From an uncultured Chitinophagaceae bacterium (GTDB lineage Bacteria; Bacteroidota; Bacteroidia; Chitinophagales; CAIOSU01): a stretch of 38,159 bases of DNA. A model generated the notes under the pieces. The model saw nothing but the letters and a program-made list of their open reading frames with translations, ran no database searches and was not told the DNA's origin. Below, one piece after another: positions 3,677 through 20,780 of the stretch. Numbering within the stretch: position 1 is the stretch's first letter; every line of letters begins with the position of its first letter. A program made the position numbers and the translations under genes. The DNA lies in NCBI GenBank assembly GCA_964430605.1, contig CAYSGX010000002.1, forward strand, positions 1-38,159. Reading direction: 5' to 3'.

Positions 3677-3745
3677 GCAGCTCTTCTTTCAGTCGTTCGT
3701 TGGCTTTGTGTGGCTTGCAAATGTGTGTGCTTGTGTGTTGGCGTT
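3677..3745. repeat. TG-rich intergenic repeat, copy A (left border of island 1)
   Basis: Contains GTTGGCTTTGTGTGGCTTGCAAATGTG (3699-3725) followed by TGTGTGTTGGC (3732-3742), which abuts the R-M stop codon at 3744. Matches copy B. Confidence 0.8.
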
Positions 3746-6700
3746 AATTCAGATACTTTTTTAATATTTGCTCTTTCTGTTTTGGGATGTCAGCTAACTG
3801 TTTTTGCAATACAGCTATTTTTGTTTCAATCTTTTCTATTGCTGCAACTATTTTTTTTTGTTCTTCGATAGATGGTAAAGGGATTTTAAATTCTTCTAAT
3901 TGCAGTTTTGTAATTGCTTCTCTTGAAGTAGCACCGTCCCCAATTTCTAAAAGTTTCGTTTTATATTCTGAACTAACCAATATTGTCTGAACATATTTGG
4001 GTAATGCTTTTTCATTTGTCCGAATTATAGAAACGTGTTGATTTACTCTTGCAGGTAAATATTTATCTTCTACTATACAGCATCTTGCTATGGAAGCACC
4101 AGTAATATTGAAAAGAATGTCATTTTTCTCAACGGTGACATTGTCTAACTTTTTAGCTTGTTCATCACTAATAAAAGCAAGACCTTTTTCTATAAATTCA
4201 GAATCATAAATGTTTTGACTTCTTATTAAGCTAATCCCACTCGTTCGATAAGAACCCTTACCTCCCAAAGGCGTTGCCCCGCTGCCTATTTTGGTCGTAA
4301 TTTCTTCAAGTTTGGTTAAAGCACCTTTTGAAGTATTGATAGTTGTTCCAAAATTTTCTCTTAGTTTTTCAATTTCCTCAATCGCTTTTTGTTCTTGCTT
4401 TTCCAATGCTTCGATTTCAGCAACTATTTTTTGCTGAATGTTGATTGGTGGAAGTGGAATTTTAATATCCAATAAGTTGCCTCGATTAAGTCCACCTTGA
4501 GCTTGACCTGTAATATTTGCTTTTAATAATTGTTGACCTTTTTTTGAAAGCAACAAATTGAATAGAAACTTTTGATGAGATTTCTTATTAGTTCTTAGTA
4601 GAAAAACGTGTTCATTAATAATTGAACTTTCATAACCTAAATCGTTAGTTCTAAATAATGCAACCTTACCTGTCAACGCTCCATCTTTGCAAATAAGAAT
4701 ATCTAAATCATTTAAAATTCCTTGTTTTGAAGATTTGAAAAATTCAACAGGTACAAATTTTAGATTACTTTTACTAATATAAATCTTACCATTTAAGCCA
4801 ATGTGTTCACCTCCTAAACTTGGTATACCTTCTTGATATTCACTAACACCACCTTTGGGTCTATTTCCGCTTTCTAATACTTCTAAGATTGTAGAGAGTT
4901 TTGTTTGGTCGTATTTACTTTCGATTACTATTTTTTTTTTAGCCGAAAGCGATATGTTCTTTTCAAAATCTACACGGTCAAAAGTGAACATATCTACCAA
5001 GTTGCGGTAGCTTAGATTTTGATGTAAGATTTCTGGAATGCCTAAATCAAACTCACCTAAAAATGCTTTGTAAATATAGTAGCTTGCTTTTTCGGGGTTG
5101 GTAAAGCTATCCGCATCATACAATTGTGTGCACTCGTCTATACTTTTACTTCGTTGAATAGGATGTATGCCTTCGCTACCTCTACGGTTACTAAACTCAT
5201 ATCCTAAAAAGCGTTTTTCAGCATCTTTTTCTCCTGTTTTTACCAACACCAACTTTTGAGGGTATGCCAATATAAAATAAAGCAACTTGTCTTGTTCTAC
5301 TGCTAAGATATTCGTCCAATGTTCTTGTTCATTTTTGGCTTTAATCTTCTTGGTATATTCTTTATAAATTTCGTGTTGCTCAATAGCGGCATTGGGCTTC
5401 TGTTGCAACAACGTTTTGTAATCATCAAAAGAAATATTGTCCCAAACGTGGGCTACATATTTTTTGAGTGGTTTTTCAATGCCGTTTATGGTTACATCTT
5501 GTAGCGATACAAAACATTTTTTTATTGCTTCTGTTATATTGTAAGCATCCGCATTGTTTCTGCGTCTTAAAAATAATGTAACGGTATTTGTTCCCGTTGC
5601 CATAAAGGTATTTGAGCCTAATTCTGCAATACCTAAAATTTCAAAGTGCTTTAATAGAATTTCTCTTGTTTGAGTGTAAATGCCTGTATTGCTCAAAATA
5701 CTACTTGGCAAAATGATACCTGCTACACCACCATCTTTTAATAGCTGTTTAGTACGTTCAATAAACAAACATTCTATTTCAGAACTTTGGTCGGTTAGTC
5801 GGTTGTATAAATCAAAGCCCAACTTCGCTTTTTCTTCATCCATTAAACCCTTAAAAGCGGATACGGAATAAGGCGGATTTGAAATAATAATATCAAATTC
5901 TTTATTGTCTTGCGGATAGGTTTTATCGGTTTCTTTCAATAAATCTTTAAACTCTTTTGAAGTGCTAAAATCTCCCAAACCATCACCGTGAATTACTTTT
6001 GCCAAACCATCTCCGTGCAGATAGCAACTTACTTTGGCTGTCTTTACTAAACGATAATCTTTTTCAATACCATAAACGTAGGTTTCAGCCCAATCAAATT
6101 GGTCTTCTTTCCATTTTTTGATGGCTCTTTTGGTAGTAGGATTAAAAGAACTTTCATCCAAATTGTCAATGTAATTTTGAATAACTTCCATTGATTCGGT
6201 GATAAAATGCCCACTCCCCGCTGCATAATCAATTACAGTTGGTAACAAGTCATTTTTATTTCCCTGCTCAATTTTCTGTGCTGTTATTTCTTGAAATGGT
6301 AAACTTTTAATAATAAATCGAGCAATCGGAACTGGTGTGAAAAACTGTCCTGATTCTTGCTTTAATCCTGTAGTTAAAAGCAATTCAAAGAAATCACTCA
6401 AAAATTGCTGACGGTAATTGTAACGTATTTGATATACTTGAAGCAGCTCAACTACTTCTTTTACCACTTTGGCATTTTCTTCAAAAGAAGTATCATCATA
6501 CACTTCTTTTATTGCAAATTCATTATTTTTTTTAAGCCGAATTTCGGTTAAAATATCCTTGAATTTATCTCTGTACTGAATGTCAACGTGTAAAAATTGT
6601 TTATCAAATTCGCTGTCGCTAACGTCTGTAACTTTCTTTTCCAAAAGTTCGAGCATTCCTCTGTTATAAAGGTCTGTCAGTCTTTTTTGAAACGAAACGT

Positions 6701-7535
6701 GAGTATCTTCTCCTTCAAGCCATTGGAAATGCAATTGCTCGTCTGGATTTCTGTTTTCATCAACAATTTTGCAAAGGAAAAGTGTAAATATTTTGTTGAA
6801 AGCGTTCGGTTTATCAGAAACTACATTGTGTCTTAGTATTTCCAAAAAGCGATTAAAAATGAAACTACTGTCTTCTTGTTTTAAAACTTTTAAGTCGTTT
6901 TTTGTAAGTGCCTTACTTTGAAATTCATAAGGCTTTACCCAACTTTCAAAAATACCATTGGTTTTAGGTAGTTTATTCCAACGCTCGAAAAAGTCTTTTA
7001 CATTTCCTGCTTGTCGGTAATCATCTTCAATTTTTGTAATGACGTTTTTAAACTCAATGTTTTTTCCTTGAAGTTGCGAAGCGTAAAGCATAAGAATATC
7101 AGCATCCTTATCCTGTTGGAAGTAAGTAAAAAGCTGACCACCGTTTCGTTCTAAATTTTTAAATTCTTTGTCAAATTCTGCTCCCCAAGTCTTGCATTCA
7201 ATCATTAGGTAAGCCGAACCATTGTCACGAGTTACCAAAATATCTAATCGTCCGCTTGTGCCGTGTCCGGTTCGCCAAGTTTTTTCTAAAACAATATTTT
7301 GAGGTAAATAACCTTTTTCTAAAAGTCTGTCAACACATTCAAGAACAACCCAATTTTCTGCTTGTGAAAAATTTTGAGTGGTTTTGCTTTCGCCTTTTAT
7401 CTTCTTTCCAAAATCGAAAGTTGAGTTCTCAAAATCAATTTCAATGGCGTAGCCATTGTATTTTTTATGAAAAATACCTGAAGTATTTTCTTTAGGTGTA
7501 AATCCTAATGTTTGTATGAAGTTTTTGTAGTTCAT
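3744..7535 (-). CDS. Single-polypeptide restriction-modification-specificity enzyme (Type IIB/IIG architecture: PD-(D/E)XK nuclease + N6-adenine methyltransferase + two HsdS-like TRDs)
   Basis: 1263-aa ORF. N-terminal nuclease core: GRLDILV..YLMIECK (D98/E112/K114). Gamma-class N6A MTase motifs: GQFFTP, motif I VIDYAAGSGHF, and motif IV NPPY at nt 5868-5879. Two target-recognition domains follow (about nt 4461-4913 and 3891-4313), each ending in a conserved helix (IPLPPINIQQKIVAEIEALE / IPLPSIEEQKKIVAAIEKIE). Confidence 0.85.
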   Translation of the reverse strand: MNYKNFIQTLGFTPKENTSGIFHKKYNGYAIEIDFENSTFDFGKKIKGESKTTQNFSQAENWVVLECVDRLLEKGYLPQNIVLEKTWRTGHGTSGRLDILVTRDNGSAYLMIECKTWGAEFDKEFKNLERNGGQLFTYFQQDKDADILMLYASQLQGKNIEFKNVITKIEDDYRQAGNVKDFFERWNKLPKTNGIFESWVKPYEFQSKALTKNDLKVLKQEDSSFIFNRFLEILRHNVVSDKPNAFNKIFTLFLCKIVDENRNPDEQLHFQWLEGEDTHVSFQKRLTDLYNRGMLELLEKKVTDVSDSEFDKQFLHVDIQYRDKFKDILTEIRLKKNNEFAIKEVYDDTSFEENAKVVKEVVELLQVYQIRYNYRQQFLSDFFELLLTTGLKQESGQFFTPVPIARFIIKSLPFQEITAQKIEQGNKNDLLPTVIDYAAGSGHFITESMEVIQNYIDNLDESSFNPTTKRAIKKWKEDQFDWAETYVYGIEKDYRLVKTAKVSCYLHGDGLAKVIHGDGLGDFSTSKEFKDLLKETDKTYPQDNKEFDIIISNPPYSVSAFKGLMDEEKAKLGFDLYNRLTDQSSEIECLFIERTKQLLKDGGVAGIILPSSILSNTGIYTQTREILLKHFEILGIAELGSNTFMATGTNTVTLFLRRRNNADAYNITEAIKKCFVSLQDVTINGIEKPLKKYVAHVWDNISFDDYKTLLQQKPNAAIEQHEIYKEYTKKIKAKNEQEHWTNILAVEQDKLLYFILAYPQKLVLVKTGEKDAEKRFLGYEFSNRRGSEGIHPIQRSKSIDECTQLYDADSFTNPEKASYYIYKAFLGEFDLGIPEILHQNLSYRNLVDMFTFDRVDFEKNISLSAKKKIVIESKYDQTKLSTILEVLESGNRPKGGVSEYQEGIPSLGGEHIGLNGKIYISKSNLKFVPVEFFKSSKQGILNDLDILICKDGALTGKVALFRTNDLGYESSIINEHVFLLRTNKKSHQKFLFNLLLSKKGQQLLKANITGQAQGGLNRGNLLDIKIPLPPINIQQKIVAEIEALEKQEQKAIEEIEKLRENFGTTINTSKGALTKLEEITTKIGSGATPLGGKGSYRTSGISLIRSQNIYDSEFIEKGLAFISDEQAKKLDNVTVEKNDILFNITGASIARCCIVEDKYLPARVNQHVSIIRTNEKALPKYVQTILVSSEYKTKLLEIGDGATSREAITKLQLEEFKIPLPSIEEQKKIVAAIEKIETKIAVLQKQLADIPKQKEQILKKYLN

Positions 7536-9346: not shown

Positions 9347-10063
9347 GTGGCGAAAAAAGAAAATGTTGACGAAAAAATTATCGTTGCGATAGATGGTTAT
9401 TCTTCTTGCGGCAAAAGTACCTTAGCAAAAGACTTAGCGAAAAAGTTGCAATACGTATATATAGATTCGGGGGCTATGTACCGTGCAGTGGGCTTGTATT
9501 GCCTGCAACATAATATTGACATAAACGTTGAGGCAGATGTGGTTGCCGCTTTACCCAAAATAAAAATAAGTTTCAGGTATAACAGCGATACTAATACGAA
9601 CGAAACATACCTGAACAGTAAAAATATTGAGGCAGCTATCAGAAGTTTAGAAGTAGCGTCAATGGCAAGCACAGTAAGCAAATACAAAAAAGTGAGAGAA
9701 GCTATGGTAGCGCAGCAACAGCTTTTCGGAAAAGAAAAAGGCATTGTGATGGACGGAAGGGATATTGGCACGGTGGTATTTCCTGATGCTGAACTGAAAT
9801 TATTTATTACCGCCAGTATTGAAGTGCGCACCGAGAGAAGATTTAAAGAACTGGCACAAAAAGGCATTCTTACTACAAAAGAAAAAGTAGCCGAAAATTT
9901 AAAAGAGCGCGATGAAAATGATATTAACAGAGCAGAAAGCCCGTTAAGAAAAGCAGATGACGCTAAAGAAATTGACAACTCTTTTTTATCTACAACCGAG
10001 CAGTTAAATCTTGCCTGCTATTTTGTAAATGAAGTAATGAAAAAATATCATCAAGCTTCATAG
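9347..10063 (+). CDS. cmk: (d)CMP kinase (cytidylate kinase)
   Basis: GTG start. P-loop IAIDGYSSCGKST, plus YIDSGAMYRA and GIVMDGRDIGTVVFPDAELK. Confidence 0.93.
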   Translation: MAKKENVDEKIIVAIDGYSSCGKSTLAKDLAKKLQYVYIDSGAMYRAVGLYCLQHNIDINVEADVVAALPKIKISFRYNSDTNTNETYLNSKNIEAAIRSLEVASMASTVSKYKKVREAMVAQQQLFGKEKGIVMDGRDIGTVVFPDAELKLFITASIEVRTERRFKELAQKGILTTKEKVAENLKERDENDINRAESPLRKADDAKEIDNSFLSTTEQLNLACYFVNEVMKKYHQAS

Positions 10064-10215: not shown

Positions 10216-11241
10216 TTATTCATTTTGGTTCATCTGCGAACGAATGAGTGCAATTTCCTGTATCAATTCTTCTTCTGTCGGAATATATAGTTTGTATTTG
10301 GTCGCAAATAATTTTTGGTTGTCGTTAAGTATTGAAAAACGCACTTCCGCACGGTCTTTTTCTTCGCAAAGAATAATTCCGATTGTCGGGTTGTCGCCTT
10401 CGGTGCGTTTCAGTTCGTCATACATACGCACATACATATCCATTTGTCCAACGTCTTGGTGTGTCAATTTTCCTATTTTCAGGTCTATCAGCACAAAGCA
10501 TTTCAGAATATAGTTGTAAAACACCAAGTCAATGTAATAATGTGAAAGTTCTGTATTGATACGTTGTTGGCGGTTTACAAACGAAAATCCTTTGCCGAGT
10601 TCCAATAGGAATTTTTGCAAGTTGTCAATAATGGCTTGTTCTACTTGGCTTTCGCTGAATTTTTGATTTTCTTTTAATTCGTAAAAATCCAACACAAGCG
10701 GGTCTTTCAAAATAAAATCCTGTGGATTTAGGGAAAGTTGGTTTGAATTTTCGGTACTTAATTCATTTAAAGTTTCTTTGTGTGTTGAAATCAAGCGTTC
10801 GTAATAGTGTTTGTCCACTTGTTCGTCTAAAAACCTTGTACTCCAAACATTTTGAGCCGCTTCGTTCATATAAAGTTCTCTGGCTTTCGGGTTTTCAACA
10901 CGCAAAAGCGAACGGTAATGTGTCCAACTTAATTCTTTACGCAGTGCGTAAACATTTGGAAATTGCAGGTAAAATTTACGCATATTGGTAAGGTTCACAT
11001 AGGTAAAACCTTTGCCAAACTCCTTTTGTAAGCGTTCAGAAACAGATTTTAGCAAACTTTCGCCATATTTAGCGTATTGTTCGCCTCCTTGTTCTTCCAC
11101 AATTTTTTGCCCAATATGCCAATAGGTTTCTACCATAGCAAAATTAGCCGCTTGAAACACTTTTTGGCGGGCATTTAGTATCAGTTCTCTTGAAAACTGA
11201 TACAAATTATTGCTGTTTTCTATGTTTTGTTGTTCAGGCAT
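10216..11241 (-). CDS. DUF1016/YhcG-family PD-(D/E)XK nuclease-domain protein
   Basis: 341 aa. N-terminal DUF1016 pattern: YWHIGQKIVE, KYGESLLKSVSERL, SWTHYRSLLRV. C-terminal nuclease core: YYIDLVFYN..FVLIDLKIGK. Confidence 0.85.
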   Translation of the reverse strand: MPEQQNIENSNNLYQFSRELILNARQKVFQAANFAMVETYWHIGQKIVEEQGGEQYAKYGESLLKSVSERLQKEFGKGFTYVNLTNMRKFYLQFPNVYALRKELSWTHYRSLLRVENPKARELYMNEAAQNVWSTRFLDEQVDKHYYERLISTHKETLNELSTENSNQLSLNPQDFILKDPLVLDFYELKENQKFSESQVEQAIIDNLQKFLLELGKGFSFVNRQQRINTELSHYYIDLVFYNYILKCFVLIDLKIGKLTHQDVGQMDMYVRMYDELKRTEGDNPTIGIILCEEKDRAEVRFSILNDNQKLFATKYKLYIPTEEELIQEIALIRSQMNQNE

Positions 11242-11250
11242 TGTTTACAT

Positions 11251-12009
11251 CTAATAATTTTGTTTTATCAATGATTTCAATTCCTCAACAGACACCAGTT
11301 CCTTTCCCCGATGGATTATAGAATGGCAATTAGGACATACCGGAATCAAATCTTTTATCGGGTCAAGAACATATTCTTTGCCGATTTTTGATAATGGAAC
11401 AATATGATGAACATGAATGAAACCTTTTCCTATTTCTCCATAAAAGTTATAAAAATCGAAACCACAAGCATTACAAACCGCTCCATAGTGTTCAATACAT
11501 AACCTTCGTGCAAGCGGATTTCTTTCAAACTTATTTATGACAACCGATTTTACAGCACCTTCGTAAATGGGAGAATCTTCGCTAACATAAGATTGTATTT
11601 CATCATCAAGCGGATAATAAAAACTTTCATTTAATTGCCAAGAGATTTTAACCGGAGTGCTATCTATAAAATCTTTAATCTTAACCGTTCCTTCAAATGT
11701 AAAAGGTTCTTTATCGTTAGTTCTGGTAAAAAGGAAAATACTTTGATTAGGTTCGGGGTTTAGCATTTTTCTTATTGAAGGTTGATTTATGTTAGAATTT
11801 GTTTTGGCTTCCCATTTAAAAATTTCCCCGTCCCAAAAGTTATTATAATCATGTCCTGTCCTTCCCGGGATTCCGACATTTGAAAAGATATAAATATTTC
11901 CTTCGTATTCTCTGTATCCTGTATCCCAAGCTCCTTTTTTCCTTTCATCAGGAACTTTTAAAAGCTCGTAAATATCGTTTTTAGTGTATGTTTTATTTAC
12001 TTCAAACAT
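11251..12009 (-). CDS. HNH endonuclease with an N-terminal DUF3427-like (putative DNA/modification reader) domain; Type IV-restriction-like
   Basis: 252 aa. C-terminal His-Me finger: CNACGFDF..HVHHIVPLS..PVCPNCHSIIH. The N-terminal ~135 aa (IYIFSNVG..HDYNNFWDGEIFKWEA..SIFLFTR..PFTFEGTV..PVKISWQL) matches my memory of the DUF3427 pattern but needs an HMM test. Confidence 0.8.
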   Translation of the reverse strand: MFEVNKTYTKNDIYELLKVPDERKKGAWDTGYREYEGNIYIFSNVGIPGRTGHDYNNFWDGEIFKWEAKTNSNINQPSIRKMLNPEPNQSIFLFTRTNDKEPFTFEGTVKIKDFIDSTPVKISWQLNESFYYPLDDEIQSYVSEDSPIYEGAVKSVVINKFERNPLARRLCIEHYGAVCNACGFDFYNFYGEIGKGFIHVHHIVPLSKIGKEYVLDPIKDLIPVCPNCHSIIHRGKELVSVEELKSLIKQNY

Positions 12010-12010
12010 A

Positions 12011-13321
12011 TTAAGGATACATAATTGCTATTCCAAGCCTTGCGGTATGGGAAGATAGTTTTTGCAGAATATCAGCAAATAATTTATCCTTCGCTTTCAT
12101 TAAGATTTTATATTTAGAAGAATCTTTTAACTCACTTTCTTTAATCGTTTGAAATCTGTAAAAATCAAAAATTATCATTTGAGGTTTTTCAAACCCCTCA
12201 ATATTTACCGGATATAAAAAAGTGTAAAAATTTTCGGCTTTAAAAAGGCTTTTATCCCCTTTCAAAATAGGTTTATCATAATCCATTTGTATTCCTCCTA
12301 CAATTCTTGAAAACGATTGCTTTTTATTTAGAGCAAAATCACAAGGCGGAGTTATTTCTACACAAATTCTACGCTTCTTTAAGTTTTTAAAGTCATCGTG
12401 AGTGTCTATATTTATTTCATTATTTTTTTTATCCAGAATTTCTTTAATGTAAAGAGGTGAATTTTCATCAGCAATCTCATATATGTTTCCCGGAATTACG
12501 GAATCTTGTGATAAGTTTTGGAAATCTAACAGTAGTAATGAGTTAAGTTTTGAGAATACTTTTGTTTTTTCTTCAGCCGATTCATTGTATGTCAGATTAT
12601 TCGGTTGTGAGAATAAATTTTGAATGTTTTGATAGTTATTGGATGTTTCAAACTGTAAAGTATCCATTAATGATTTCACTAAGTCTTTTTGTAAATCATA
12701 ATTTGCGGTACTGCTTTGAGGTATTCCGGTATAGTTACAGGCTAAAGTATATAAGACGGATTCGAGATGTTTATTTTTTTTATCATTTGTATCAAACAAA
12801 TCATACAATGTTGATATGGTACAATCCGAACCTTTCTTAACGGCTTTGTTCCACTCAATGAAAAATGAAGATGAAACATCTTTTGCTAATTTTTCTTCTA
12901 ATTCCTCTAAAACCCCTTCATAATTCCCTTTTGTTTTATATTTGTTCTTTTCCAAAGAAACAACAAATAACGGTAAAGTAAACGAGTTTGTTTTTAAGTA
13001 TATCTTATCGCAAAATTCTCCAAAATGATTAGAATGTTTAGTCCATAATACTACTCCATACGTACCAAAGTCTTTATCTATAATTGTTTTAAAATATTTT
13101 CTTATCAGTGCGATATTTTCGGTACTACTTCTTTCATCTTGCAGATATAAATCCAAAAAAATTAATTTCCTGTTGTTAAAAGAAGTACTTTTTGTTTCCA
13201 ATTCATTTGGATGATAATATTTAGTCCAAATATCTTTTTCTTCCAAATATTTTATCAAATCGTTTACTTCTTCCTTATCATCATCGATAACCAAAGCACT
13301 TGTTATAAATCCTTGTAACAT
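12011..13321 (-). CDS. Receiver (REC) domain protein with an unassigned ~300-aa C-terminal domain (candidate effector)
   Basis: Track ORF 12011-13417, but its first 32 codons overlap the upstream gene. The ATG at 13321 lies 4 nt after the upstream stop. REC signature: ALVIDDD, LIFLDLYL (candidate phospho-acceptor D57, nt 13151-13153), VVLWTKH (T94), VVSLEK (K125). I recognise no motif in residues ~135-437. Confidence 0.65.
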   Translation of the reverse strand: MLQGFITSALVIDDDKEEVNDLIKYLEEKDIWTKYYHPNELETKSTSFNNRKLIFLDLYLQDERSSTENIALIRKYFKTIIDKDFGTYGVVLWTKHSNHFGEFCDKIYLKTNSFTLPLFVVSLEKNKYKTKGNYEGVLEELEEKLAKDVSSSFFIEWNKAVKKGSDCTISTLYDLFDTNDKKNKHLESVLYTLACNYTGIPQSSTANYDLQKDLVKSLMDTLQFETSNNYQNIQNLFSQPNNLTYNESAEEKTKVFSKLNSLLLLDFQNLSQDSVIPGNIYEIADENSPLYIKEILDKKNNEINIDTHDDFKNLKKRRICVEITPPCDFALNKKQSFSRIVGGIQMDYDKPILKGDKSLFKAENFYTFLYPVNIEGFEKPQMIIFDFYRFQTIKESELKDSSKYKILMKAKDKLFADILQKLSSHTARLGIAIMYP

Positions 13322-13325
13322 ATTT

Positions 13326-15428
13326 TTATTTTTTTTCTTTCGGAAAACAGAGAGCAACAATTGCTTTATTGACTTTATTTTCTTTAACAGGTTTTGGAAA
13401 ATCAATGTCGTTTTCATCTGAAATTAATATTAGCTTACCTTTCATGGCGGTCATCATCTCATTGGCTACATGAAGTCCTAACCCCGAACCGATATTGTGC
13501 GGTTTACCTGTTAAGAAAGGCTTTACGGCAACATCAAAAGGCAAATTAAATCCCGGACCGTTATCGGAAACAATAATCGAGTTATAGCCTTGTATCTGGT
13601 CGGTGATGTATACCGAAATAAACCTGCCGGATTTTCTTGCGTAACTTAACCAATATATAGCATTATCCAAAAGATTTGTTATTACGGATATTGATTCCGC
13701 TTCTGCTAAATAAGCTTCCAACTTGTTCTCTTTCCAGTTTGAAATAACATTAATGGAATGGTCTATAAATCTGAATTCATAATTATCTAAAGCAGTGGAA
13801 ACAATTTTGCTTAAAGGATTGAGCTTAATATCGGATTTTTTAAGCATAGCGGAATAACCTCGTATTATTTTTTCCAATGACAGAGATATTCGAACTGCTT
13901 TTTCTTTTTCGTTTCGTTCAATACAGCCTGTCAATTCAGCTATAAGCTTATCTAATTCGTGTATAACGATACCTAAATTTAATCCGGCATTTGCGCTTTT
14001 TATTAAAACTTCTTTTACCTCTTTATATTGGTCATTAATCCTGTATAAATATTTCAATACTTCATCTTTAACTTCTTTTTCCTTAACTTTTTCTTCTACA
14101 ATATTCATCACCTCATTCAAATCAGATAAAACAGGTTCTACGGCTTTGTGTTTTTTATACAAAGAAGTTAATAAGGATTTATCTATATTTCTTTCTCTAA
14201 CGATTAATGATAATACGTAATCAATGGCTTCAACAAAGTCAAAATAAGATTCGTTTTCTATAAATCCTTCTCTGTTTGTTTTTTCTACCAATCCTTTACT
14301 TAAAGCTCTATCTATTTTAACCGCACCAATAATGATATTGTTGCTGACATTTCCACCTACCCGATGTACTCTTTTCAAATCAATGCCCAACCAATCATTA
14401 TCCCTTTCGCCATAATTATATACTCTTACACCGTCTCTGTAAACCCTTATACCTCCGTTTTCTTTCAAATATGTTTTCAGAGCTGTTTTTTCCGTATTTA
14501 CATAGCTGAATATTTGAGCATCCGTATCGAAAATAATTACATCAAACTCAATTGTTCCGATATTACTTTGATTCAAGTCAATATCTTCGAATTTTCGGGT
14601 ATCGTAATTCCATTTTTTAATTATTTTGTCTTCTTCAATTAAATCGTTTAGGTTTACTTCTCTGCCCTTATCTATTTTTTGTAAACTGCTCCAAGGTTTA
14701 AATTCATATTTAAACTCTATTATTTCACCGTCTTTCATTTTGCAATGTCCGAAGTAAAGAGCATTGTTTTTAATATCTTCAAAATCAGGTAAGCCTTCAA
14801 AAACATTTGTATTGCTTGTCGCTAATACATTAAATGAATCGTTATTTTCGGAAAAAGGACTGTTTAGTGAGGTAATGTTTCTGTGAACTTCCCTTAATTG
14901 TCTTCTATCCCAATCCGTTTTTAAATCTTCAATAATTATTTTTGTACCTGTTGCGTTTAGAAAAACAGTCGGTTTACTTTTTTCATTTACATCTATAGTA
15001 AAATCATCAATGTTTTTTGCAGATTTAAGTTGATTCCAATCTATCTTTAATTCAACTTCATTATCATTTTTTGTTTTGGAAACTAATGTAATTTTATTCC
15101 CCAATTTGTGTATTCCCAATCTCCCTATTCCTTTTTCTCCTAAAGGTATTCTTCCGCAAACATTAGGTTCAAGATTCTTTTTTTTATTATCAGTTCCTAC
15201 CACTAACCAAACCGTTTCAATAATGTTTTTATTCATTCCGAAACCGTCATCTTCAATAGTTAATTTAGTTAACTTATTACCGCTAAATATAAAATCAACG
15301 ATACAATGAGTTGCACACGCATCATAAGAATTTTTAATCAATTCAAATAAGGCGATACTCTCATTTTTAATTAAATCTTCTCCCAGATGAGATAAAACAC
15401 GAGGCGTTATAGAAAACTTTAATTTCAT
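13326..15428 (-). CDS. Dual GHKL protein: N-terminal MutL/MORC/Hsp90-type ATPase fused to a histidine-kinase-like module (H-box + HATPase_c)
   Basis: 700 aa. N-terminal Bergerat motifs: FELIKNSYDA (E29/N33/D36), IEDDGFGM, GEKGIGRLG. Candidate H-box: GIVIHELDKLIAEL (H490, nt 13959-13961). C-terminal kinase-type boxes: ITNLLDNAIYW (N box), VSDNGPGF (G1), GSGLGLHV (G2). The ATG overlaps the dcm stop (ATGA, 15425-15428). Confidence 0.75.
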   Translation of the reverse strand: MKLKFSITPRVLSHLGEDLIKNESIALFELIKNSYDACATHCIVDFIFSGNKLTKLTIEDDGFGMNKNIIETVWLVVGTDNKKKNLEPNVCGRIPLGEKGIGRLGIHKLGNKITLVSKTKNDNEVELKIDWNQLKSAKNIDDFTIDVNEKSKPTVFLNATGTKIIIEDLKTDWDRRQLREVHRNITSLNSPFSENNDSFNVLATSNTNVFEGLPDFEDIKNNALYFGHCKMKDGEIIEFKYEFKPWSSLQKIDKGREVNLNDLIEEDKIIKKWNYDTRKFEDIDLNQSNIGTIEFDVIIFDTDAQIFSYVNTEKTALKTYLKENGGIRVYRDGVRVYNYGERDNDWLGIDLKRVHRVGGNVSNNIIIGAVKIDRALSKGLVEKTNREGFIENESYFDFVEAIDYVLSLIVRERNIDKSLLTSLYKKHKAVEPVLSDLNEVMNIVEEKVKEKEVKDEVLKYLYRINDQYKEVKEVLIKSANAGLNLGIVIHELDKLIAELTGCIERNEKEKAVRISLSLEKIIRGYSAMLKKSDIKLNPLSKIVSTALDNYEFRFIDHSINVISNWKENKLEAYLAEAESISVITNLLDNAIYWLSYARKSGRFISVYITDQIQGYNSIIVSDNGPGFNLPFDVAVKPFLTGKPHNIGSGLGLHVANEMMTAMKGKLILISDENDIDFPKPVKENKVNKAIVALCFPKEKK

Positions 15429-16483
15429 TTCCCCCTGTTTTGTATTATTGCTTTTCCAATAGCTTGGGCATATTTTGGCGGAACGGCATTTCCTATCATT
15501 CTTGCGGTATTTGAAATGCTTGTTGTTTTAAAAATGTAATTTTTAGGAAATGATTGTAATACTGCTCCTTCTCGTAAGGAAATGGCTCTGTTTTCTTCCG
15601 GATGTGCAAATCGTCCGTTTGAAATACTGAAAAACTTTGTTGTAATTGTGGGAGAAGGTTTGTCCCACCACATTCTGCCGTATGTATCTTTAAAATTGTC
15701 TTTATCGTTTTTATGACAATTGGGTGCTAATTCGGAATTGTCGGCATAAGCTAATCTTGTTCCACCATTTTTTTTCGTTACGGCAAGCCTTTTTAAATTG
15801 ATTTCTTGTAATCCCGCCACTGTATGCAGAAAAGTAGAATTGTCTTTATACCCCGCTTTTACTTTTGGGAAACCGTTGTGTTCTCCTAAAACATCTCTAA
15901 CGGTCAGCTTTTCACCTTTAGCTTTTACAGGCTCTATTTCTGTTTTGGTTACTCTGTTGGCAATAAGCGTAAATCTTCTTCTATGTTGTGGAACACCATA
16001 ATTACTTACTTCGTGAACATCAAAATGCACTTTATAGTTATTATCCTTTAGCCACTCGATAAAATCTTCCAATCCGCTTTCAGTTTTTCTTCTCAAAACG
16101 CCCGGTACATTTTCAACAATCACATAACCCGGTACAAAATATTCTACAAAACGCCTAAACTCTTTCAATAAATCTTTTGATTTTTCCGATTTATTTTTGT
16201 CCGTGTTAATGATGCTCCAAAATTGACACGGACTGCAACCGATAAGCACCAAATTTTTATCGTTTTTCTTTAATGAAAGTTGTTTTTCTAACTCTGTTTC
16301 CTTTAATTCAAAAACATCAGCGTGAATAAATTTTGCTCCTTTTATGTTTGATATGTACGTCTCTTCGCAGGTTTTATCAAAATCTATTCCCGCAAGAATT
16401 TCTATTCCTGCTTGCTGCATTCCGTAGCTCATTCCGCCTCCGGAACAGAAAAAATCAACTGCTTTTATGTTGTTTTTTTGCAT
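15425..16483 (-). CDS. dcm: DNA (cytosine-5)-methyltransferase
   Basis: 352 aa with FCSGGGMS (motif I), GCSPCQFWS (motif IV, PCQ), IVENVPG (motif VI), QHRRRF (motif VIII) and GNAVPP (motif X). Confidence 0.93.
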   Translation of the reverse strand: MQKNNIKAVDFFCSGGGMSYGMQQAGIEILAGIDFDKTCEETYISNIKGAKFIHADVFELKETELEKQLSLKKNDKNLVLIGCSPCQFWSIINTDKNKSEKSKDLLKEFRRFVEYFVPGYVIVENVPGVLRRKTESGLEDFIEWLKDNNYKVHFDVHEVSNYGVPQHRRRFTLIANRVTKTEIEPVKAKGEKLTVRDVLGEHNGFPKVKAGYKDNSTFLHTVAGLQEINLKRLAVTKKNGGTRLAYADNSELAPNCHKNDKDNFKDTYGRMWWDKPSPTITTKFFSISNGRFAHPEENRAISLREGAVLQSFPKNYIFKTTSISNTARMIGNAVPPKYAQAIGKAIIQNRGK

Positions 16484-16886
16484 TAATTACTTCTTCAAAA
16501 GTATCGGCACAAAGTAATGAATTTTTCTCAATATCTCGACCCCAAAACCGCAAAATAATCCAACCTTCCTTTGTCAGTTGTTCGTTCACTTCCTTGTCTC
16601 GCTCTATGTTTCGCTGAATTTTCTTGTGCCAAAATTCAATGTTTGATTTGTGTTCGTGTTTTTTTGATTCCCAATTTTTACCGTGCCAAAATTCACTATC
16701 GCAAAAAACAGCGATTTTATATTTTTTGAAAACGAAATCAGGTTTACCGAAAACCGTTTTGTCATTTTTCTGATAACGATAGCCTCTTTTCCATAATTCT
16801 TTACCCAACAAAACTTCAATTTTTGAACCTTTGTTTTTTACGGCTTGCATATTTTTACGTCTTTGTTCCTTAGTCAATTTATCCAT
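16455..16886 (-). CDS. vsr: Very-short-patch repair endonuclease (T:G mismatch)
   Basis: 143 aa. RRKNMQAVKNKGSKIE..LWKRGYRY..GKPDFVFKKYKIAVFCDSEFWHG..WILRFW matches the Vsr family. The 3' end overlaps the dcm start by 29 nt. Confidence 0.9.
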   Translation of the reverse strand: MDKLTKEQRRKNMQAVKNKGSKIEVLLGKELWKRGYRYQKNDKTVFGKPDFVFKKYKIAVFCDSEFWHGKNWESKKHEHKSNIEFWHKKIQRNIERDKEVNEQLTKEGWIILRFWGRDIEKNSLLCADTFEEVINAKKQHKSS

Positions 16887-16963
16887 TTTATGTGCTACAT
16901 TTTAAAAATATAGTGAAAATATTTGCACATTTATCAAATGTTTATATATATTTGTATTCTGAA
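16887..16963. promoter_or_regulatory. 77-bp divergent control region between the vsr-led and GHKL-led operons
   Basis: This is the only non-coding DNA between two back-to-back operons. On the + strand, TTTG (16922-16925) and TATATTTG (16947-16954) fit the Bacteroidetes -33 TTTG / -7 TAnnTTTG pattern. The palindrome ACATTTatcAAATGT (16927-16941) lies between them. Confidence 0.5.
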
Positions 16964-17215
16964 ATGAAAAACAAAGTTAGCAAAATGTCTTCTGTTAAAC
17001 GAGATAGATTCGAAAAAGTGGCTTCAAACCGTGTCCAAAAAATTATAGATTTTTTGGGGTTGCTCGGTAATTGTGCCAATAAGAATAATTACGAATACAC
17101 GGAAAAAGACGTGGAATTAATGTTTAAAGAAATTAACCGTGCTTTAAAAGAAACGAAAACGCTTTATGATAAAGAATTGAACAAAACGGGAAAAGCGGGT
17201 TTTAAATTTGAATAA
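16964..17215 (+). CDS. Small hypothetical protein, first gene of the plus-strand cassette
   Basis: The track ORF starts at GTG 16892 inside the promoter region. ATG 16964 (MKNKVSKMSSVKRDRFEKVASNRVQKIIDFLGLLGNCANKNNYEYTEKDV..) or ATG 16985 is more plausible. The stop lies 2 nt before the next ATG. Confidence 0.55.
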   Translation: MKNKVSKMSSVKRDRFEKVASNRVQKIIDFLGLLGNCANKNNYEYTEKDVELMFKEINRALKETKTLYDKELNKTGKAGFKFE

Positions 17216-17217
17216 AA

Positions 17218-19209
17218 ATGGAAGTAAAAAATATGGAGAAAAATTGTACTTGGCATTTTAAAGAAGAAGGCGGACGTGATGTTGGTCCAAATGACCCGAT
17301 TGATGAAAAGTTTAAAGGTCAACCTTATTATTCAATTGTTCGGGAAGCAATACAAAATTCATTAGATGCAGTGATGAATGACCAACAACCTGTAAAGGTT
17401 GTTTTCAGTTTTTTTGAAATTGACAGAAAAAATTATCCTAACTTTTTTCAGTTAGAAAATCATATTACCCAAAGTCAGCAATACTATTCCGACAACGATA
17501 ATGCAAAACGATTATTCGGAAATATGTTGGAATACCTTAACGGAAAAGAACCCAATAAGAAAAAACTAAAAATTTCGTGTATGCGTATTTCCGACTATAA
17601 TACGGTCGGAATGAATTATGATGCATAAAATACAAACTCGCCATTTTATGCTTTTTTGCGTGCAGGTGGTGTTAGTGCCAAAAGTCAAGGAGCTGGCGGT
17701 TCGTTTGGTTTCGGAAAAGGTGCTTACTATACACTTTCTCCGATTAAAACAATTGTGGTTTCAACTCGTGATAATGATAACAATGTATTTTTTGAAGGCT
17801 CAACTATTTTGACGACTCATAAAAATGCAACCAATCAGAAATTAACGGCTTACGGATATTATGATAACAACAACGGAGAACCGACACAAAACAACGATGA
17901 TATTCCCGAAGTTTTTCAGAGAACAAAAATCGGAACAGATGTGAACATTATTGGTTTGTGGAAAGAAGATGATAGGAAAAAGCTGATGATTAAATCTGTT
18001 CTCAATAACTTTTGGTTAGCGATTTATCATAAAAAACTCGTTGTTCAAGTTGATGATGTTACGATAAGTGAAAACAACATTGAACAAATAATTGACCAAT
18101 ATTTTGAAGGCGAATTTGAAAGCGGAAAAGCAGATGAAATTGAATCGTGGAATCCGAAAGCGTATTTCAAAGCAGTAAAATATGCAGGAAACCATGACCA
18201 ATATAAAGTGTTTGAAGATGAATTGAATACTATCGGGCAAGTAAAGCTATATGTTTATTTAGAAAAAGGTTTACCGAACCGTACAGCATATTTCAGAAAA
18301 CCTAAAATGGTTGTATTCAAACGAACAAACGGAAAAGTAAAAGGATATGTTGCGGTGTTTGTTTGTGAAAATGAGAAAGGAAACGAAATGCTCCGTCTAA
18401 TGGAAAATCCTGCACACAACGAATGGAAAGAAGAAAACTATCCAAAGAATGAAGGAGATATTGATACAAATGCTCGAAGAGGACGTATAGAAATAAGTGA
18501 TTTCATAAATAGAACGCTTGAATCTTTGGCAAAAATCAAAACAGGCAACAAGATTGCATTTGTAGGTTTGGAAGAATACTTGTCCATTCCCGAAGATTTG
18601 TTGGAAAAAGACGAAGAATACGATTTTGAAGGACAGAGTACAAGTAACGTTTCAGGACAATCAAGCAATGAAAATACCGAAGATGAAACAGGAATGCTCA
18701 CAAGCGATAAAACAGAACCTGTAACCATAAAACCAACCGTCAAAACACAACAGTCGGAAGCAAAAGGAGAAACCAATATTGAAGTAACGGAAGAAGGAGA
18801 AGAAACCATAACCGTAGGTGGAGAAAACGAAAGTGAAGGTGGAGATGCTCCGCCAAGTGATTTGGGCGATAATGTAAATACTGGAAATCGAACAGATGAA
18901 AGTCCGAATAAAAGCAGAACGGTTATAAAAGTACGTTTAAGAGTTGCGGCACAAACAGAAAACGAAGTTTTATTTCATCATTTGATTGTAAATTCCGATA
19001 ACGAAATTGAAAATGCAGAATTGGAATTGCTTGTAAGTGGCGATAATGATAGAGATGACAGCATTTCAATTATATCAAGCGACAAAGGAACTGTTTCAAA
19101 AAATACAATCAAAAATCTAAAACTTGACATAGGCGTAACCAAAATAAAAATACGCTTTGCAGACAACATTAAACACTCGGTAAAACTCAAAGCGTATGAA
19201 ATTCAATGA
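17218..19209 (+). pseudogene. MutL/MORC/Hsp90-type GHKL ATPase (663 codons) interrupted by one in-frame TAA at 17626-17628
   Basis: Track ORFs 17218-17628 and 17656-19209 are in the same frame (offset 438 nt). Reading through gives ..ISDYNTVGMNYDA*NTNSPFYAFLRAGGVSAKSQGAGGSFGFGKGAYY. Motif I REAIQNSLDA and motif II DYNTVGM lie upstream of the stop; the glycine-rich lid GGSFGFGKG lies downstream. Confidence 0.75.
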
Positions 19210-20050
19210 TGTTACTTTTCCGCATCCTGTGCTTGGTGTTGGCGATGCAATTAGCGGAAAAACAGGATTTACAAAAGAACCCGAAATAAGTAAAACACAA
19301 GATAGTTACAAGGTTACAATAGAATGTAATCTTGATAATGACGATTTGAAAAAGTTTCTGCAAGAAAACAAAGTGGAGTTTTTGTGTGACGTAACTTGTA
19401 CAAATACTGTTTACAGAGAAAACATTGTAAGCAATAGTGAAAAAATTGAATTTGATATTCATAGAAAACAAGTCAAAGGAAAAGTAGAATTTACTTGTGT
19501 ACTTGTGGCAAAAGAAAATTTGCAGAACTATTCAAATTCAAAAGCACATTCAGATTACAACGGATTTACTTTTGACTTGGACAAAGGCGATGTGTTGGCG
19601 TTCTTCGGAGAATTTACATTTGATGCCGATATAAAATACGAAAAACTAAAAGCCGTTTCTTCATTTATGGAAGTGGTAGAAAACGAAGCAATAGAATACA
19701 CAAACATTGATTTGAAAAAACCGAAAATTGAAGTTCAACTTCCGCCAAATGATTACAACGCATACAAAAGCGATGCAATTTCACACGAAATTAAATTTGC
19801 TCCAATGTTTCATTCTTCGCTTGTATTAAATGCGTTGTTAATTGCTCTGTATAATTTTGAAGAACACAAAGAGTATTTGTGGGCAAAAGCAATAGAATAC
19901 CGATTAAAAAACGACAAGGAACTAAACAGTATAAATTTTCAAGAAAAAGAAAACATTCCGGAAATAGCACAACGCTTATTGGGAAATCCGTTTAGCCGTT
20001 TGTTAAACGGATTGAATGTTATTGTTGAATCATTAGAAGAAGAAAATTAA
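19196..20050 (+). CDS. Hypothetical protein (284 aa), no family recognised
   Basis: ATG 19196 overlaps the GHKL gene end by 14 nt. The ORF is long and clean, beginning MKFNDVTFPHPVLGVGDAISGK. Confidence 0.7.
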   Translation: MKFNDVTFPHPVLGVGDAISGKTGFTKEPEISKTQDSYKVTIECNLDNDDLKKFLQENKVEFLCDVTCTNTVYRENIVSNSEKIEFDIHRKQVKGKVEFTCVLVAKENLQNYSNSKAHSDYNGFTFDLDKGDVLAFFGEFTFDADIKYEKLKAVSSFMEVVENEAIEYTNIDLKKPKIEVQLPPNDYNAYKSDAISHEIKFAPMFHSSLVLNALLIALYNFEEHKEYLWAKAIEYRLKNDKELNSINFQEKENIPEIAQRLLGNPFSRLLNGLNVIVESLEEEN

Positions 20051-20051
20051 A

Positions 20052-20780
20052 ATGGCAAAGCAAATTATATTCAAAGATAAATACGTTCAAAAATTAAAGA
20101 ACGAATTAAATATTGAGTTCTACAAGGCAAATAAATTTGTTTACGATAAGAAACAAATTTTGATGTTGCCTAATATTGAGAAAACGGAAAATTTGTTAGA
20201 GAGATTAGATGTAAATGATGATTGCAAAACGGCAATCCAAATTTACGAAGCCTTTCAAAAATTAGAACCGATACAAGCCTCAGATGAGCGTTTGTGGGTT
20301 TATCTTTCTCACGTTGATTTGTACTCGTATATGATTAAACGTTGGAATACCGGACATAGCGGAACGGTGAAAGATGAAAAAGCAAAAGAATATATTTTAG
20401 AACATTGGTTTTTGATTTCGTCAGCACAAAGCAGTTTGTTACGCCACGCTTTGGCCAGACTGTGGTGGTCGGTTTATTTGTCGGTTGATGAAACAAAAAA
20501 TGACAAGTATGAACTAACTAAAATTTTGTTTCGTCAGTTAGATTTTCCTACAAGAACGTTAGGAACGTACAAACTCGGTCGCCACAAAGAAGCTGTAATC
20601 GGAATTTTAGAGTTTATCAAAGAGAACGAAAATTTATTCAAAAATAAGTTCGAAGATAAAGCTCGTTTTATTACAAAACATTTGAATGTTGTCGGTGGTG
20701 TAAAACCTATTTCATATTACAACCGTATTTTTTTTAAGTTTGAATTGAAAAAAATGTCAAACGAAATTTCCAATATTTAG
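20052..20780 (+). CDS. Hypothetical protein (242 aa), no family confidently recognised
   Basis: Starts 1 nt after the upstream stop. It has W/R-rich conserved-looking blocks: DERLWVYLSHVDLYSYMIKRWN and LLRHALARLWWSVYLSVDE. Confidence 0.7.
   Translation: MAKQIIFKDKYVQKLKNELNIEFYKANKFVYDKKQILMLPNIEKTENLLERLDVNDDCKTAIQIYEAFQKLEPIQASDERLWVYLSHVDLYSYMIKRWNTGHSGTVKDEKAKEYILEHWFLISSAQSSLLRHALARLWWSVYLSVDETKNDKYELTKILFRQLDFPTRTLGTYKLGRHKEAVIGILEFIKENENLFKNKFEDKARFITKHLNVVGGVKPISYYNRIFFKFELKKMSNEISNI

Follow-up and report, generated by a model that had tools for sequence, protein, structure and literature searches.

A 38,159-nucleotide (nt) stretch of DNA from an uncultured Chitinophagaceae bacterium (assembly GCA_964430605.1, contig CAYSGX010000002.1; the whole stretch is called the window below) contains four tightly packed plus-strand genes at 16964/16985..20780, here termed the small gene and genes A, B and C. 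Profile matches identify this cassette as a broken member of PDC-M33, a catalogued but uncharacterised candidate in PADLOC. Comparison with related loci showed that the cassette is part of a widespread, horizontally mobile module composed of the small gene, A, B, C and a C5 cytosine DNA methyltransferase (C5-MTase; Dcm in the window), often together with the very-short-patch repair endonuclease Vsr. The locus in the window is a decayed copy of this module inside a defence island and not a functional new system.

Identity, conservation and state of the cassette

The proteins encoded by genes A, B and C matched all three PADLOC profile sets of PDC-M33, at full length and in the same order. The match of A to PDC-M33A had an E value of 5.1e-101 (residues 10-660 against positions 3-624 of 627), that of B to PDC-M33B an E value of 3.5e-58 (residues 1-279 against 1-285 of 289) and that of C to PDC-M33C an E value of 7.1e-36, with matches to three further M33C models. 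C also matched Pfam DUF6339 (E = 7.6e-55). The gene order set for PDC-M33, FAM_02818>>FAM_02838>>FAM_01881 (A>>B>>C), is that of the adjacent genes in the window. A preliminary description of this DNA had proposed a candidate undescribed system, to be given up if profile searches placed the proteins in a system already named. The PADLOC matches do place them in one, and the proposal therefore fails, although PDC-M33 is itself only a bioinformatic candidate.

According to the accessible text of Payne et al. (bioRxiv 10.1101/2024.01.29.577857), PDC-M33 is the three-family cassette CAS_00129, which has 98 instances in RefSeq v209 and no annotation in the supplement. The PDC candidates described there, 145 in number, were nominated for being embedded in BREX, DISARM or type I restriction-modification (R-M) systems ("guilt-by-embedding"), and only nine other candidates, the HECs, were tested experimentally; for PDC-M33 the same text gives no domains, mechanism or experimental test. 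The cassette in the window differs from the PADLOC definition in two respects: the definition comprises three genes, whereas a 76-amino acid (aa) gene and a C5-MTase are regular partners here, and this copy is broken.

The relatives examined comprised 108 loci from at least five phyla (22 species-representative genomes, 6 contigs with one identical B and 80 metagenome contigs with distant relatives of A), in which open reading frames (ORFs) were labelled with iterated hidden Markov models; individual loci are cited below by L numbers. Three annotated plasmid loci, from Priestia, Arthrobacter and Deinococcus, were examined apart from these. The four-gene, operon-like arrangement given in the preliminary description was confirmed in its coordinates and junctions (a 2-nt gap, a 14-nt overlap and a 1-nt gap) by the ORF list and the sequence, and the gene order recurs in the 108 loci, far beyond what chance would give. 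B followed A in all 94 loci with room for it and C followed B in 90 of 90, so that the co-occurrence of the B and C families with the ATPase, which had been suggested as a check, is strict elsewhere.

The small gene lay upstream of a full-length gene A in 53 of 81 loci. It was recognisable in Priestia, Arthrobacter, Deinococcus and a Patescibacteria metagenome-assembled genome, and all four cassette genes are annotated on the Priestia, Arthrobacter and Deinococcus plasmids. Judged by this conservation, the small gene is a real fourth component of the cassette, absent from the PADLOC model of PDC-M33. Relative to the literature that could be found, this fourth gene is new, as are the coupling to C5 methylases as a class and the lack of a fold relative for B and C, both of which are described below. 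A phage origin of the cassette was considered and rejected, as 2.9 million viral contigs yielded no copy of it and there was no PHROG match.

Ortholog alignments indicate that the likely true start of the small gene is the ATG at 16985 (Table 1). The first protein, previously put at about 80 aa, is thus a real ORF with a start that should probably be moved downstream. The element TATATTTG is a putative -7 promoter element of the small gene, based on its match to TAnnTTTG, the consensus of the -7 element of Bacteroidetes sigma-A promoters. A search for an operator-like repeat in the intergenic region between vsr and the small gene yielded only AT-rich imperfect repeats, none of them convincing.

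Table 1. Features of the cassette and its surroundings (positions of the window; residue numbers are those of the protein concerned).
Feature	Position	Strand	Details
Type IIG restriction-methylase-specificity fusion	3744..7535	-	1263 aa
YhcG/DUF1016 PD-(D/E)xK protein	10216..11241	-	PADLOC PDC-S02
HATPase_c_3 + HATPase_c protein	13326..15428	-	700 aa; profile match
dcm, C5 cytosine DNA methyltransferase	15425..16483	-	Pfam DNA_methylase, E = 4.2e-53
vsr, very-short-patch repair endonuclease	16455..16886	-	Pfam Vsr, E = 1.8e-28
TATATTTG, putative -7 element	16947..16954	+	match to Bacteroidota -7 promoter element TAnnTTTG, ~30 nt upstream of ATG 16985
Small gene	16985..17215	+	76 aa, MSSVKRDRF...FKFE; in-frame upstream ATG at 16964
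Gene A, probable GHKL-type (paraMORC-like) ATPase, PDC-M33A	17218..19209	+	663 codons; most likely a pseudogene here
Bergerat motif I, REAIQNSLDA	17341..17370	+	E43, N47, D50 match ExxxNxxD; E43, Q46, N47, D50 invariant
Motif II variant, DYNTVGM	17593..17613	+	D-x-N-T-x-G-M replaces DxGxG; T129, G131 invariant; D126, N128 >=90%
In-frame TAA stop	17626-17628	+	codon 137 of gene A, between ATP-binding motifs II and III
Motif III, GGSFGFGKG (GxxGxG lid)	17695..17721	+	G161, G164, G166 invariant
Motif IV region, GTDVNIIGL	17932..17958	+	G239 invariant, T240 >=90% conserved
ENPAHNEW motif, middle domain of A	18403..18426	+	E396-x3-H400-x2-W403; E, H, W invariant
Acidic linker of A, residues 459-565	18592..18912	+	29 D/E, 7 K/R in 107 residues; columns mostly non-conserved
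C-terminal domain of A, ~98 aa	18913..19206	+	conserved H587, E603, DND 609-611, FADNxKH 647-653
Gene B, PDC-M33B	19196..20050	+	284 aa
Gene C, DUF6339 / PDC-M33C	20052..20780	+	242 aa, W- and R-rich

Gene A had been reported as a 663-codon ATPase gene. The length of the frame is correct; its continuity is not, as the TAA stop divides it into fragments of 136 and 517 aa. Intact orthologs free of stops, for which the preliminary description had called, were found and 19 were aligned. None of the 19 has a stop in the column of the TAA, which holds E, N, D or a gap, and most start at the equivalent of the ATG at 17233 (MEKNC...). In the public protein collection, gene A of the window is represented only by the 517-aa downstream fragment (P0294, NCBI source), as would be expected if the gene had been called in two pieces. 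We conclude from these comparisons that this copy of gene A is most likely a pseudogene; a sequencing error in place of a real nonsense mutation is conceivable. Because the stop cuts gene A between motifs II and III, the module in the window cannot work as encoded, and this copy does not have the full set of intact PDC-M33 genes. By contrast, Dcm and Vsr are still intact, as is the second dcm-linked operon, located on the other side.

The window is not the only locus with a disrupted gene A. The gene is split in L007 and N-terminally truncated in L013, L020 and L023-type loci, and in every case, as in the window, a methylase gene persists beside the cassette. In L023, L024, L026 and L028 (also L013 and L020), a module of dcm (332 aa), HNH_2 (254 aa) and a 73-aa gene has taken the place of vsr, the small gene and ~120 codons at the start of A, while B of the swapped loci is 100% identical to B of the intact loci L025 and L027. 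The replacement is a recent swap of R-M modules with its breakpoint inside the ATPase gene. Duplications were also seen: L078 (5719-13173) and L079, both from human gut metagenomes, have a tandem arrangement of small-A-B-C followed by a second A-B-C in which A is split, and in L048 (3317-4843) and L082 (5664-7235) C (DUF6339) is present as a tandem pair ahead of an operonic dcm.

Linkage to C5 cytosine methyltransferases

The preliminary description had treated dcm as part of a separate operon facing the cassette. Comparison of the loci argues otherwise and makes the C5-MTase a near-obligate partner. Among the 39 fully flanked loci, defined as those with at least 2.5 kb on both sides, 37 had a C5-MTase no more than 2.5 kb from the cassette, and Vsr was present in 18. 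The position of the methylase relative to the cassette varied among the 77 loci that have one within this distance: upstream and divergent in 40, downstream and co-directional in 18, upstream and co-directional in 10, and downstream and convergent in 9. The methylase was operonic in 17 loci, being located -25 to +18 nt from a cassette gene on the same strand, and in three of the 17 the order was small gene, dcm, A, with overlapping ORFs. Blocks of dcm|small-A-B-C lay directly between housekeeping genes in L007, L011, L015 and L018, the neighbours being genes for an MFS transporter, pyruvate kinase and DinB, a CHU_C protein, and transketolase. Based on this adjacency, on the operonic arrangements and on the five-gene blocks, we regard the facing dcm as a partner of the cassette and not as a mere neighbour.

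A separate observation concerns the methylases of L095 (430-4379), L097 and L099, where the order is small gene, dcm, A, B, C with abutting or overlapping ORFs. At 552-554 aa, these methylases are ~200 aa longer than usual.

Within the Bacteroidota, dcm identity tracks the identities of A, B and C (Spearman 0.60-0.71). Across the wider set, the phylogeny of the cassette is decoupled from methylase type. L016 and L009, for example, share 95% identity in the small protein, 78% in A, 69% in B and 77% in C, but only 28% in Dcm, while L016 and L069 share 72% in Dcm but only 41% in A. The cassette is thus coupled to C5 methylation as a class, not to any single recognition site.

The encoded proteins

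Intact orthologs of gene A encode 650-667 aa, and the family numbers 3888 clusters (50% identity) at E <= 1e-3. Alignments of 91 and 67 family members, with 26-46% identity to the first sequence of each, were used to assess conservation. The motifs REAIQNSLDA, DYNTVGM and GGSFGFGKG, which had been pointed out previously, are all present, and the four GHKL motifs occur in the expected order. The invariant columns of the alignments correspond exactly to the four Bergerat motifs plus ExxxH(xxW). Motif II is a variant, D126-x-N-T-x-G131, holding one extra residue relative to DxGxG. HATPase_c_3 was matched by two of the 67 family members, the best match (E = 2.3e-4) reaching 21.7 bits against a cut-off of 25, and one ortholog bears a GHKL name in UniRef. 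On the strength of the invariant motifs, these sub-threshold matches and the UniRef name, A is probably a GHKL ATPase. The layout of the protein is MutL-like: the ATPase and a middle region are followed by an acidic linker, which proved to be real as described, and then by a small C-terminal domain.

B had no family match in Pfam, NCBIfam or PDB sequences. The B protein of the window itself was absent from the contig index. Its AlphaFold model, a confident one (predicted local distance difference test score, pLDDT, 82), comprises an N-terminal beta-sandwich region (residues 1-182) and a C-terminal helical domain (residues 184-283), for which Foldseek found only weak FN3/cytokine-receptor matches in the PDB (template modelling score 0.24). 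The residues conserved in a diverse set of homologs (P9, P11, E65, C68, T71, R74 and W229) suggest no known active site. We considered whether B might be a Tet/JBP-type dioxygenase, based on a weak Pfam match (E = 0.092), a conserved H118-x-D120 and the link to Dcm. This assignment was rejected, as the model is a beta-sandwich plus helical domain with FN3-like Foldseek matches only and no match to a double-stranded beta-helix, and H118 and D120 are less than 90% conserved in the diverse set.

C is predicted to be all-alpha (pLDDT 72, predicted template modelling score 0.73), and its model matched nothing in the PDB or BFVD. Conserved positions of C are, among others, W82, H87, R97, W138, W139, D146 and R177. 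Neither B nor C has detectable fold relatives among the solved (PDB) structures. PD-(D/E)xK, HEPN and HD nucleases were likewise rejected as identities for B or C, since there was no profile or fold support and the conserved residues do not make up such motifs. Long variants of C (380-476 aa) occur in L030 (3345-4751), L032 (6770-8065), L043 (3779-5209) and L107 (7824-8966), with C-terminal extensions of 130-230 aa; these offered no fusion clues, as the extensions have no Pfam domain. In the same four loci, the A protein is short, at 560-580 aa.

The small protein is conserved in the Bacteroidota, Bacillota, Actinomycetota, Deinococcota and Patescibacteria, with F9, R16, N32, Y36 and F73 invariant, and it matched no Pfam, NCBIfam or PADLOC family. 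Against the PDB its profile matched only designed helical hairpins, and it is probably a helix-loop-helix protein by this prediction. A role as a helix-turn-helix (HTH) controller, or C protein, was rejected: there was no HTH family match, the profile matches were to hairpins only, and the protein is conserved in the manner of a structural subunit.

Possible modes of action and the surrounding defence genes

Among the closest points of reference for gene A are MORC and paraMORC proteins. [quoted passage not shown] At the motif level A has this hallmark, E396-NPA-H400 being invariant across the family. A also resembles the proteins described there in its N-terminal GHKL ATPase with a further middle domain, and the loci resemble theirs in having cytosine methylases, Vsr, HNH and other endonucleases nearby. 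Unlike them, A falls under the Pfam HATPase_c_3 threshold and most loci have no superfamily 2 (SF2) helicase partner, and the partner set of B, DUF6339 and small protein is not mentioned in that text. In functional terms, the cassette belongs among the GHKL (MORC/paraMORC) accessories that the same source predicted for cytosine-methylase R-M systems.

A second GHKL-based accessory attached to C5 methyltransferases has been described by Bellieny-Rabelo et al. (2021; PMC8011034), who reported modules of a C5-MTase, a HEF_HK/HATPase_c_3 'HK-like' protein and a Response_reg_2 protein with Vsr and HNH_2 endonucleases. This 'HK-like' module differs from the cassette in its proteins: A contains neither a HATPase_c nor a HEF_HK part, and B and C bear no relation to Response_reg_2. 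Module and cassette may occur together or separately, and they share one dcm in the window, L001, L002, L006, L012, L017 and L021.

BREX and DISARM systems combine a methyltransferase, a large ATPase and several proteins of unknown function, and specificity comes from the methylase while the other subunits are generic. The module is built likewise, by analogy, although its methylase is a C5 and not an N6 enzyme and its ATPase is of the GHKL and not the AAA+/Lon or helicase type. None of the four cassette proteins matched BREX, DISARM or any other named system in PADLOC-DB v2, the matches other than PDC-M33 (Cas2d and REase_II) having E values of ~0.02. MutL shares with A the GHKL ATPase N-domain, a long flexible linker and a small C-terminal domain, as well as genomic ties to Vsr, MutH-family nucleases and Dcm; A had no match to Pfam DNA_mis_repair or MutL_C or to PDB sequences, and no MutL endonuclease motif was recognised in it. 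A classical type II R-M system would have an adjacent methyltransferase, as is the case here, and a recognised nuclease fold, which was not found in the families of the small protein, A, B and C or in the models of B and C. Recognised endonucleases at the related loci are separate neighbouring genes.

The reading we tentatively favour, while giving it less than an even chance, is that the module is a MutL/MORC-like ATP clamp acting as an R-M-like or BREX-like effector keyed to 5-methylcytosine (5mC). The observations that count for it are the PDC-M33 identity, the conserved unit, the methylase coupling and its indifference to recognition sequence, the defence context, the GHKL motifs and the recurrent disruption of A with a methylase kept, which is a decay pattern resembling that of R-M systems. 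A would be an ATP-driven dimerising clamp, made up of the Bergerat ATPase, the ExxxH middle domain, the acidic linker and the small C-terminal domain, with B, C and the small protein as its obligate partners. The complex would act on DNA and would distinguish self from non-self through the 5mC deposited by the linked Dcm. Since cassettes that are close relatives are found with unrelated methylases, the recognition sequence probably does not matter to the cassette. Its specificity input may be the methylase itself or 5mC as such, which would explain the tolerance of methylase swaps. Candidates for the step that damages DNA or blocks replication would be C, the ExxxH site of A or its C-terminal domain.

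Several results weigh against this reading. Searches of Pfam, NCBIfam, PADLOC, PHROGs and PDB profiles with the cassette proteins, and Foldseek with the models of B and C, revealed neither a nuclease nor any other effector domain. The preliminary description had likewise seen no nuclease, methylase or helicase motif in the partners of the ATPase, and these searches gave no such domain for any of the four proteins. A matched no Pfam or NCBIfam family even at E <= 1, so that every curated GHKL threshold is missed, and neither the single sequence nor two profiles matched PDB sequences. An hhalign comparison of A with the neighbouring bona fide HATPase_c_3 protein was not significant; in this alignment motifs II-IV are in register, motif II pairing with DDGFGM and motif IV with GTKIIIEDL. 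The previous assignment of A as a MORC/MutL-type GHKL ATPase is therefore weakly supported, by the invariant Bergerat motifs, the sub-threshold matches and the UniRef name and not by curated thresholds or PDB-sequence matches. In ~30 loci, the linked methylase has its own conventional type II endonuclease, such as RE_HpaII, HNH_2 or MutH/Sau3AI, and a second restriction effector is therefore not needed to explain it. The endonuclease genes next to the methylase encode HNH_2 in 9-10 loci, RE_HpaII in seven and MutH/Sau3AI-like enzymes in at least five, with HNH, HNH_5, BpuJI and PLD types in fewer. Restriction keyed to a specific site would be expected to co-evolve with the methylase, and the cassette does not. 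L088 and L089 are fully flanked, intact cassettes with no methylase within 3-6 kb. Finally, literature searches on PDC-M33 and DUF6339 found nothing, including no experimental data; those on paraMORC and GHKL anti-phage proteins retrieved only work on Shedu/paraMORC3 and CapK-type systems, that is, on other proteins.

Alternatively, the cassette might be no defence effector but a genome-maintenance accessory of C5 methylation, a MutL-like ATPase complex limiting the damage caused by any Dcm. It might do so by stimulating Vsr or MutH-type nicking at T:G mismatches arising from 5mC deamination, or by freeing DNA from methylase molecules that have stalled or become covalently trapped on it. A function tied to 5mC chemistry would be expected to accompany C5 methyltransferases of unrelated specificity, as observed, and it would be in keeping with the MutL-like layout of A, with a cassette that has no nuclease of its own beside a methylase that often has one, and with the presence of Vsr in 18 of 39 loci and of adjacent MutH/Sau3AI-family genes in at least five. 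There is also a precedent in Escherichia coli MutL, which stimulates Vsr and MutH; the stimulation of Vsr is established knowledge cited in the accessible text of PMC2292703. Linkage to Dcm (95%) is, however, far tighter than linkage to Vsr (46%), and units of Dcm and cassette without Vsr are found between housekeeping genes. Moreover, the module is sporadic, mobile, plasmid-borne and repeatedly pseudogenised and sits in defence islands, a pattern typical of conflict systems and not of repair genes. We consider this explanation unlikely.

It is improbable that the cassette is an independent defence system that depends in no way on methylation and is merely co-localised with dcm R-M genes through shared integration hot spots in defence islands. 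The intact cassettes of L088 and L089 could be viewed in this manner, as could the swapping of methylase modules beside the cassette, once with a breakpoint inside A and with B 100% identical in swapped and intact loci, and the PADLOC definition of PDC-M33 by A, B and C only. Yet the adjacency in 37 of 39 loci is specific to C5 methyltransferases and occurs in four arrangements, the ORFs overlap or nearly overlap with dcm in 17 loci, including cases of dcm between the small gene and A, and five-gene units stand isolated between housekeeping genes.

Least probable of the alternatives is a PrrC-like guard or back-up, held inactive by a working C5 methyltransferase or R-M enzyme and responding with growth arrest or abortive infection once R-M has been inhibited or evaded by a phage. 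Independence from methylase specificity would fit the sensing of an enzyme better than that of a DNA site. Complete type II R-M pairs regularly adjoin the module, as type I genes do in places, which is the 'embedded' nomination pattern of which PrrC is the paradigm in the accessible text of bioRxiv 10.1101/2024.01.29.577857. On the other side, guards of type II C5 methylases are not known from experiments, profile searches found no toxin-like domain (HEPN, PIN, nuclease, TIR or pore) and some units consist of Dcm only, with no endonuclease to guard.

To return to the 5mC-keyed clamp, it would, if true, offer a bacterial model for MORC-type ATPases that read DNA methylation and would add a third type of GHKL-based accessory to cytosine-methylase R-M systems. 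A bolder form of the same idea is five-component, nuclease-less immunity, in which a MutL/MORC-like GHKL clamp, B and C of new fold and the 76-aa hairpin would, with any C5 methylase as recognition subunit or by reading 5mC itself, entrap or silence DNA without host 5mC marks. We regard this form as quite unlikely; if true, the nuclease-less clamp would represent, in bacteria, a forerunner of the link that joins MORC proteins to DNA methylation in eukaryotic silencing. PDC-M33, one of many catalogued defence candidates, is now a sharper experimental target, with apparently five components (the small protein and Dcm being added), a large family spread across phyla (~3,900 ATPase clusters at 50% identity) and a tie to C5 methylases as a class.

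The location in a defence island, which had been claimed previously, was borne out by the type IIG R-M, YhcG/PDC-S02 and dcm-vsr-paraMORC-HNH genes nearby. The cassette lies at the edge of this island, with minus-strand defence genes upstream and, downstream of 20780, housekeeping genes for a TPR lipoprotein, LpoB and a rhomboid protease. The type IIG fusion and the YhcG protein are separated by cmk (9347..10063) and a gene for a 380-aa protein with no family match. A second dcm-linked module (11251..16886, minus strand) shares its methylase with the cassette and comprises vsr, dcm and the genes for the 700-aa HATPase_c_3 + HATPase_c protein, a 467-aa protein and a 251-aa HNH protein. It resembles the C5-MTase plus 'HK-like' paraMORC arrangement of PMC8011034. 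The 467-aa protein had no family match and no similarity to the Response_reg_2 protein from L001, while the 251-aa HNH protein matched only the C-terminal half of DUF3427.

Defence genes are also common around the related cassettes, whose neighbours are enriched in HNH_2, RE_HpaII, MutH-like, paraMORC and Schlafen genes, with HATPase_c_3 'HK-like' paraMORC neighbours, in the arrangement of PMC8011034, in six loci. Schlafen/AlbA_2 (+HATPase_c_4) genes adjoin the cassette in the flanks of five loci (L005, L038, L083, L087 and L089), and Hypoth_Ymh proteins recur beside it in five. A type I HsdM methylase gene is directly downstream of the cassette in L041 (3905-6649), the kind of embedding by which PADLOC nominated PDC-M33, and a gene for a PLD-nuclease plus SF2-helicase protein is directly downstream of C in L054 (5912-8257).

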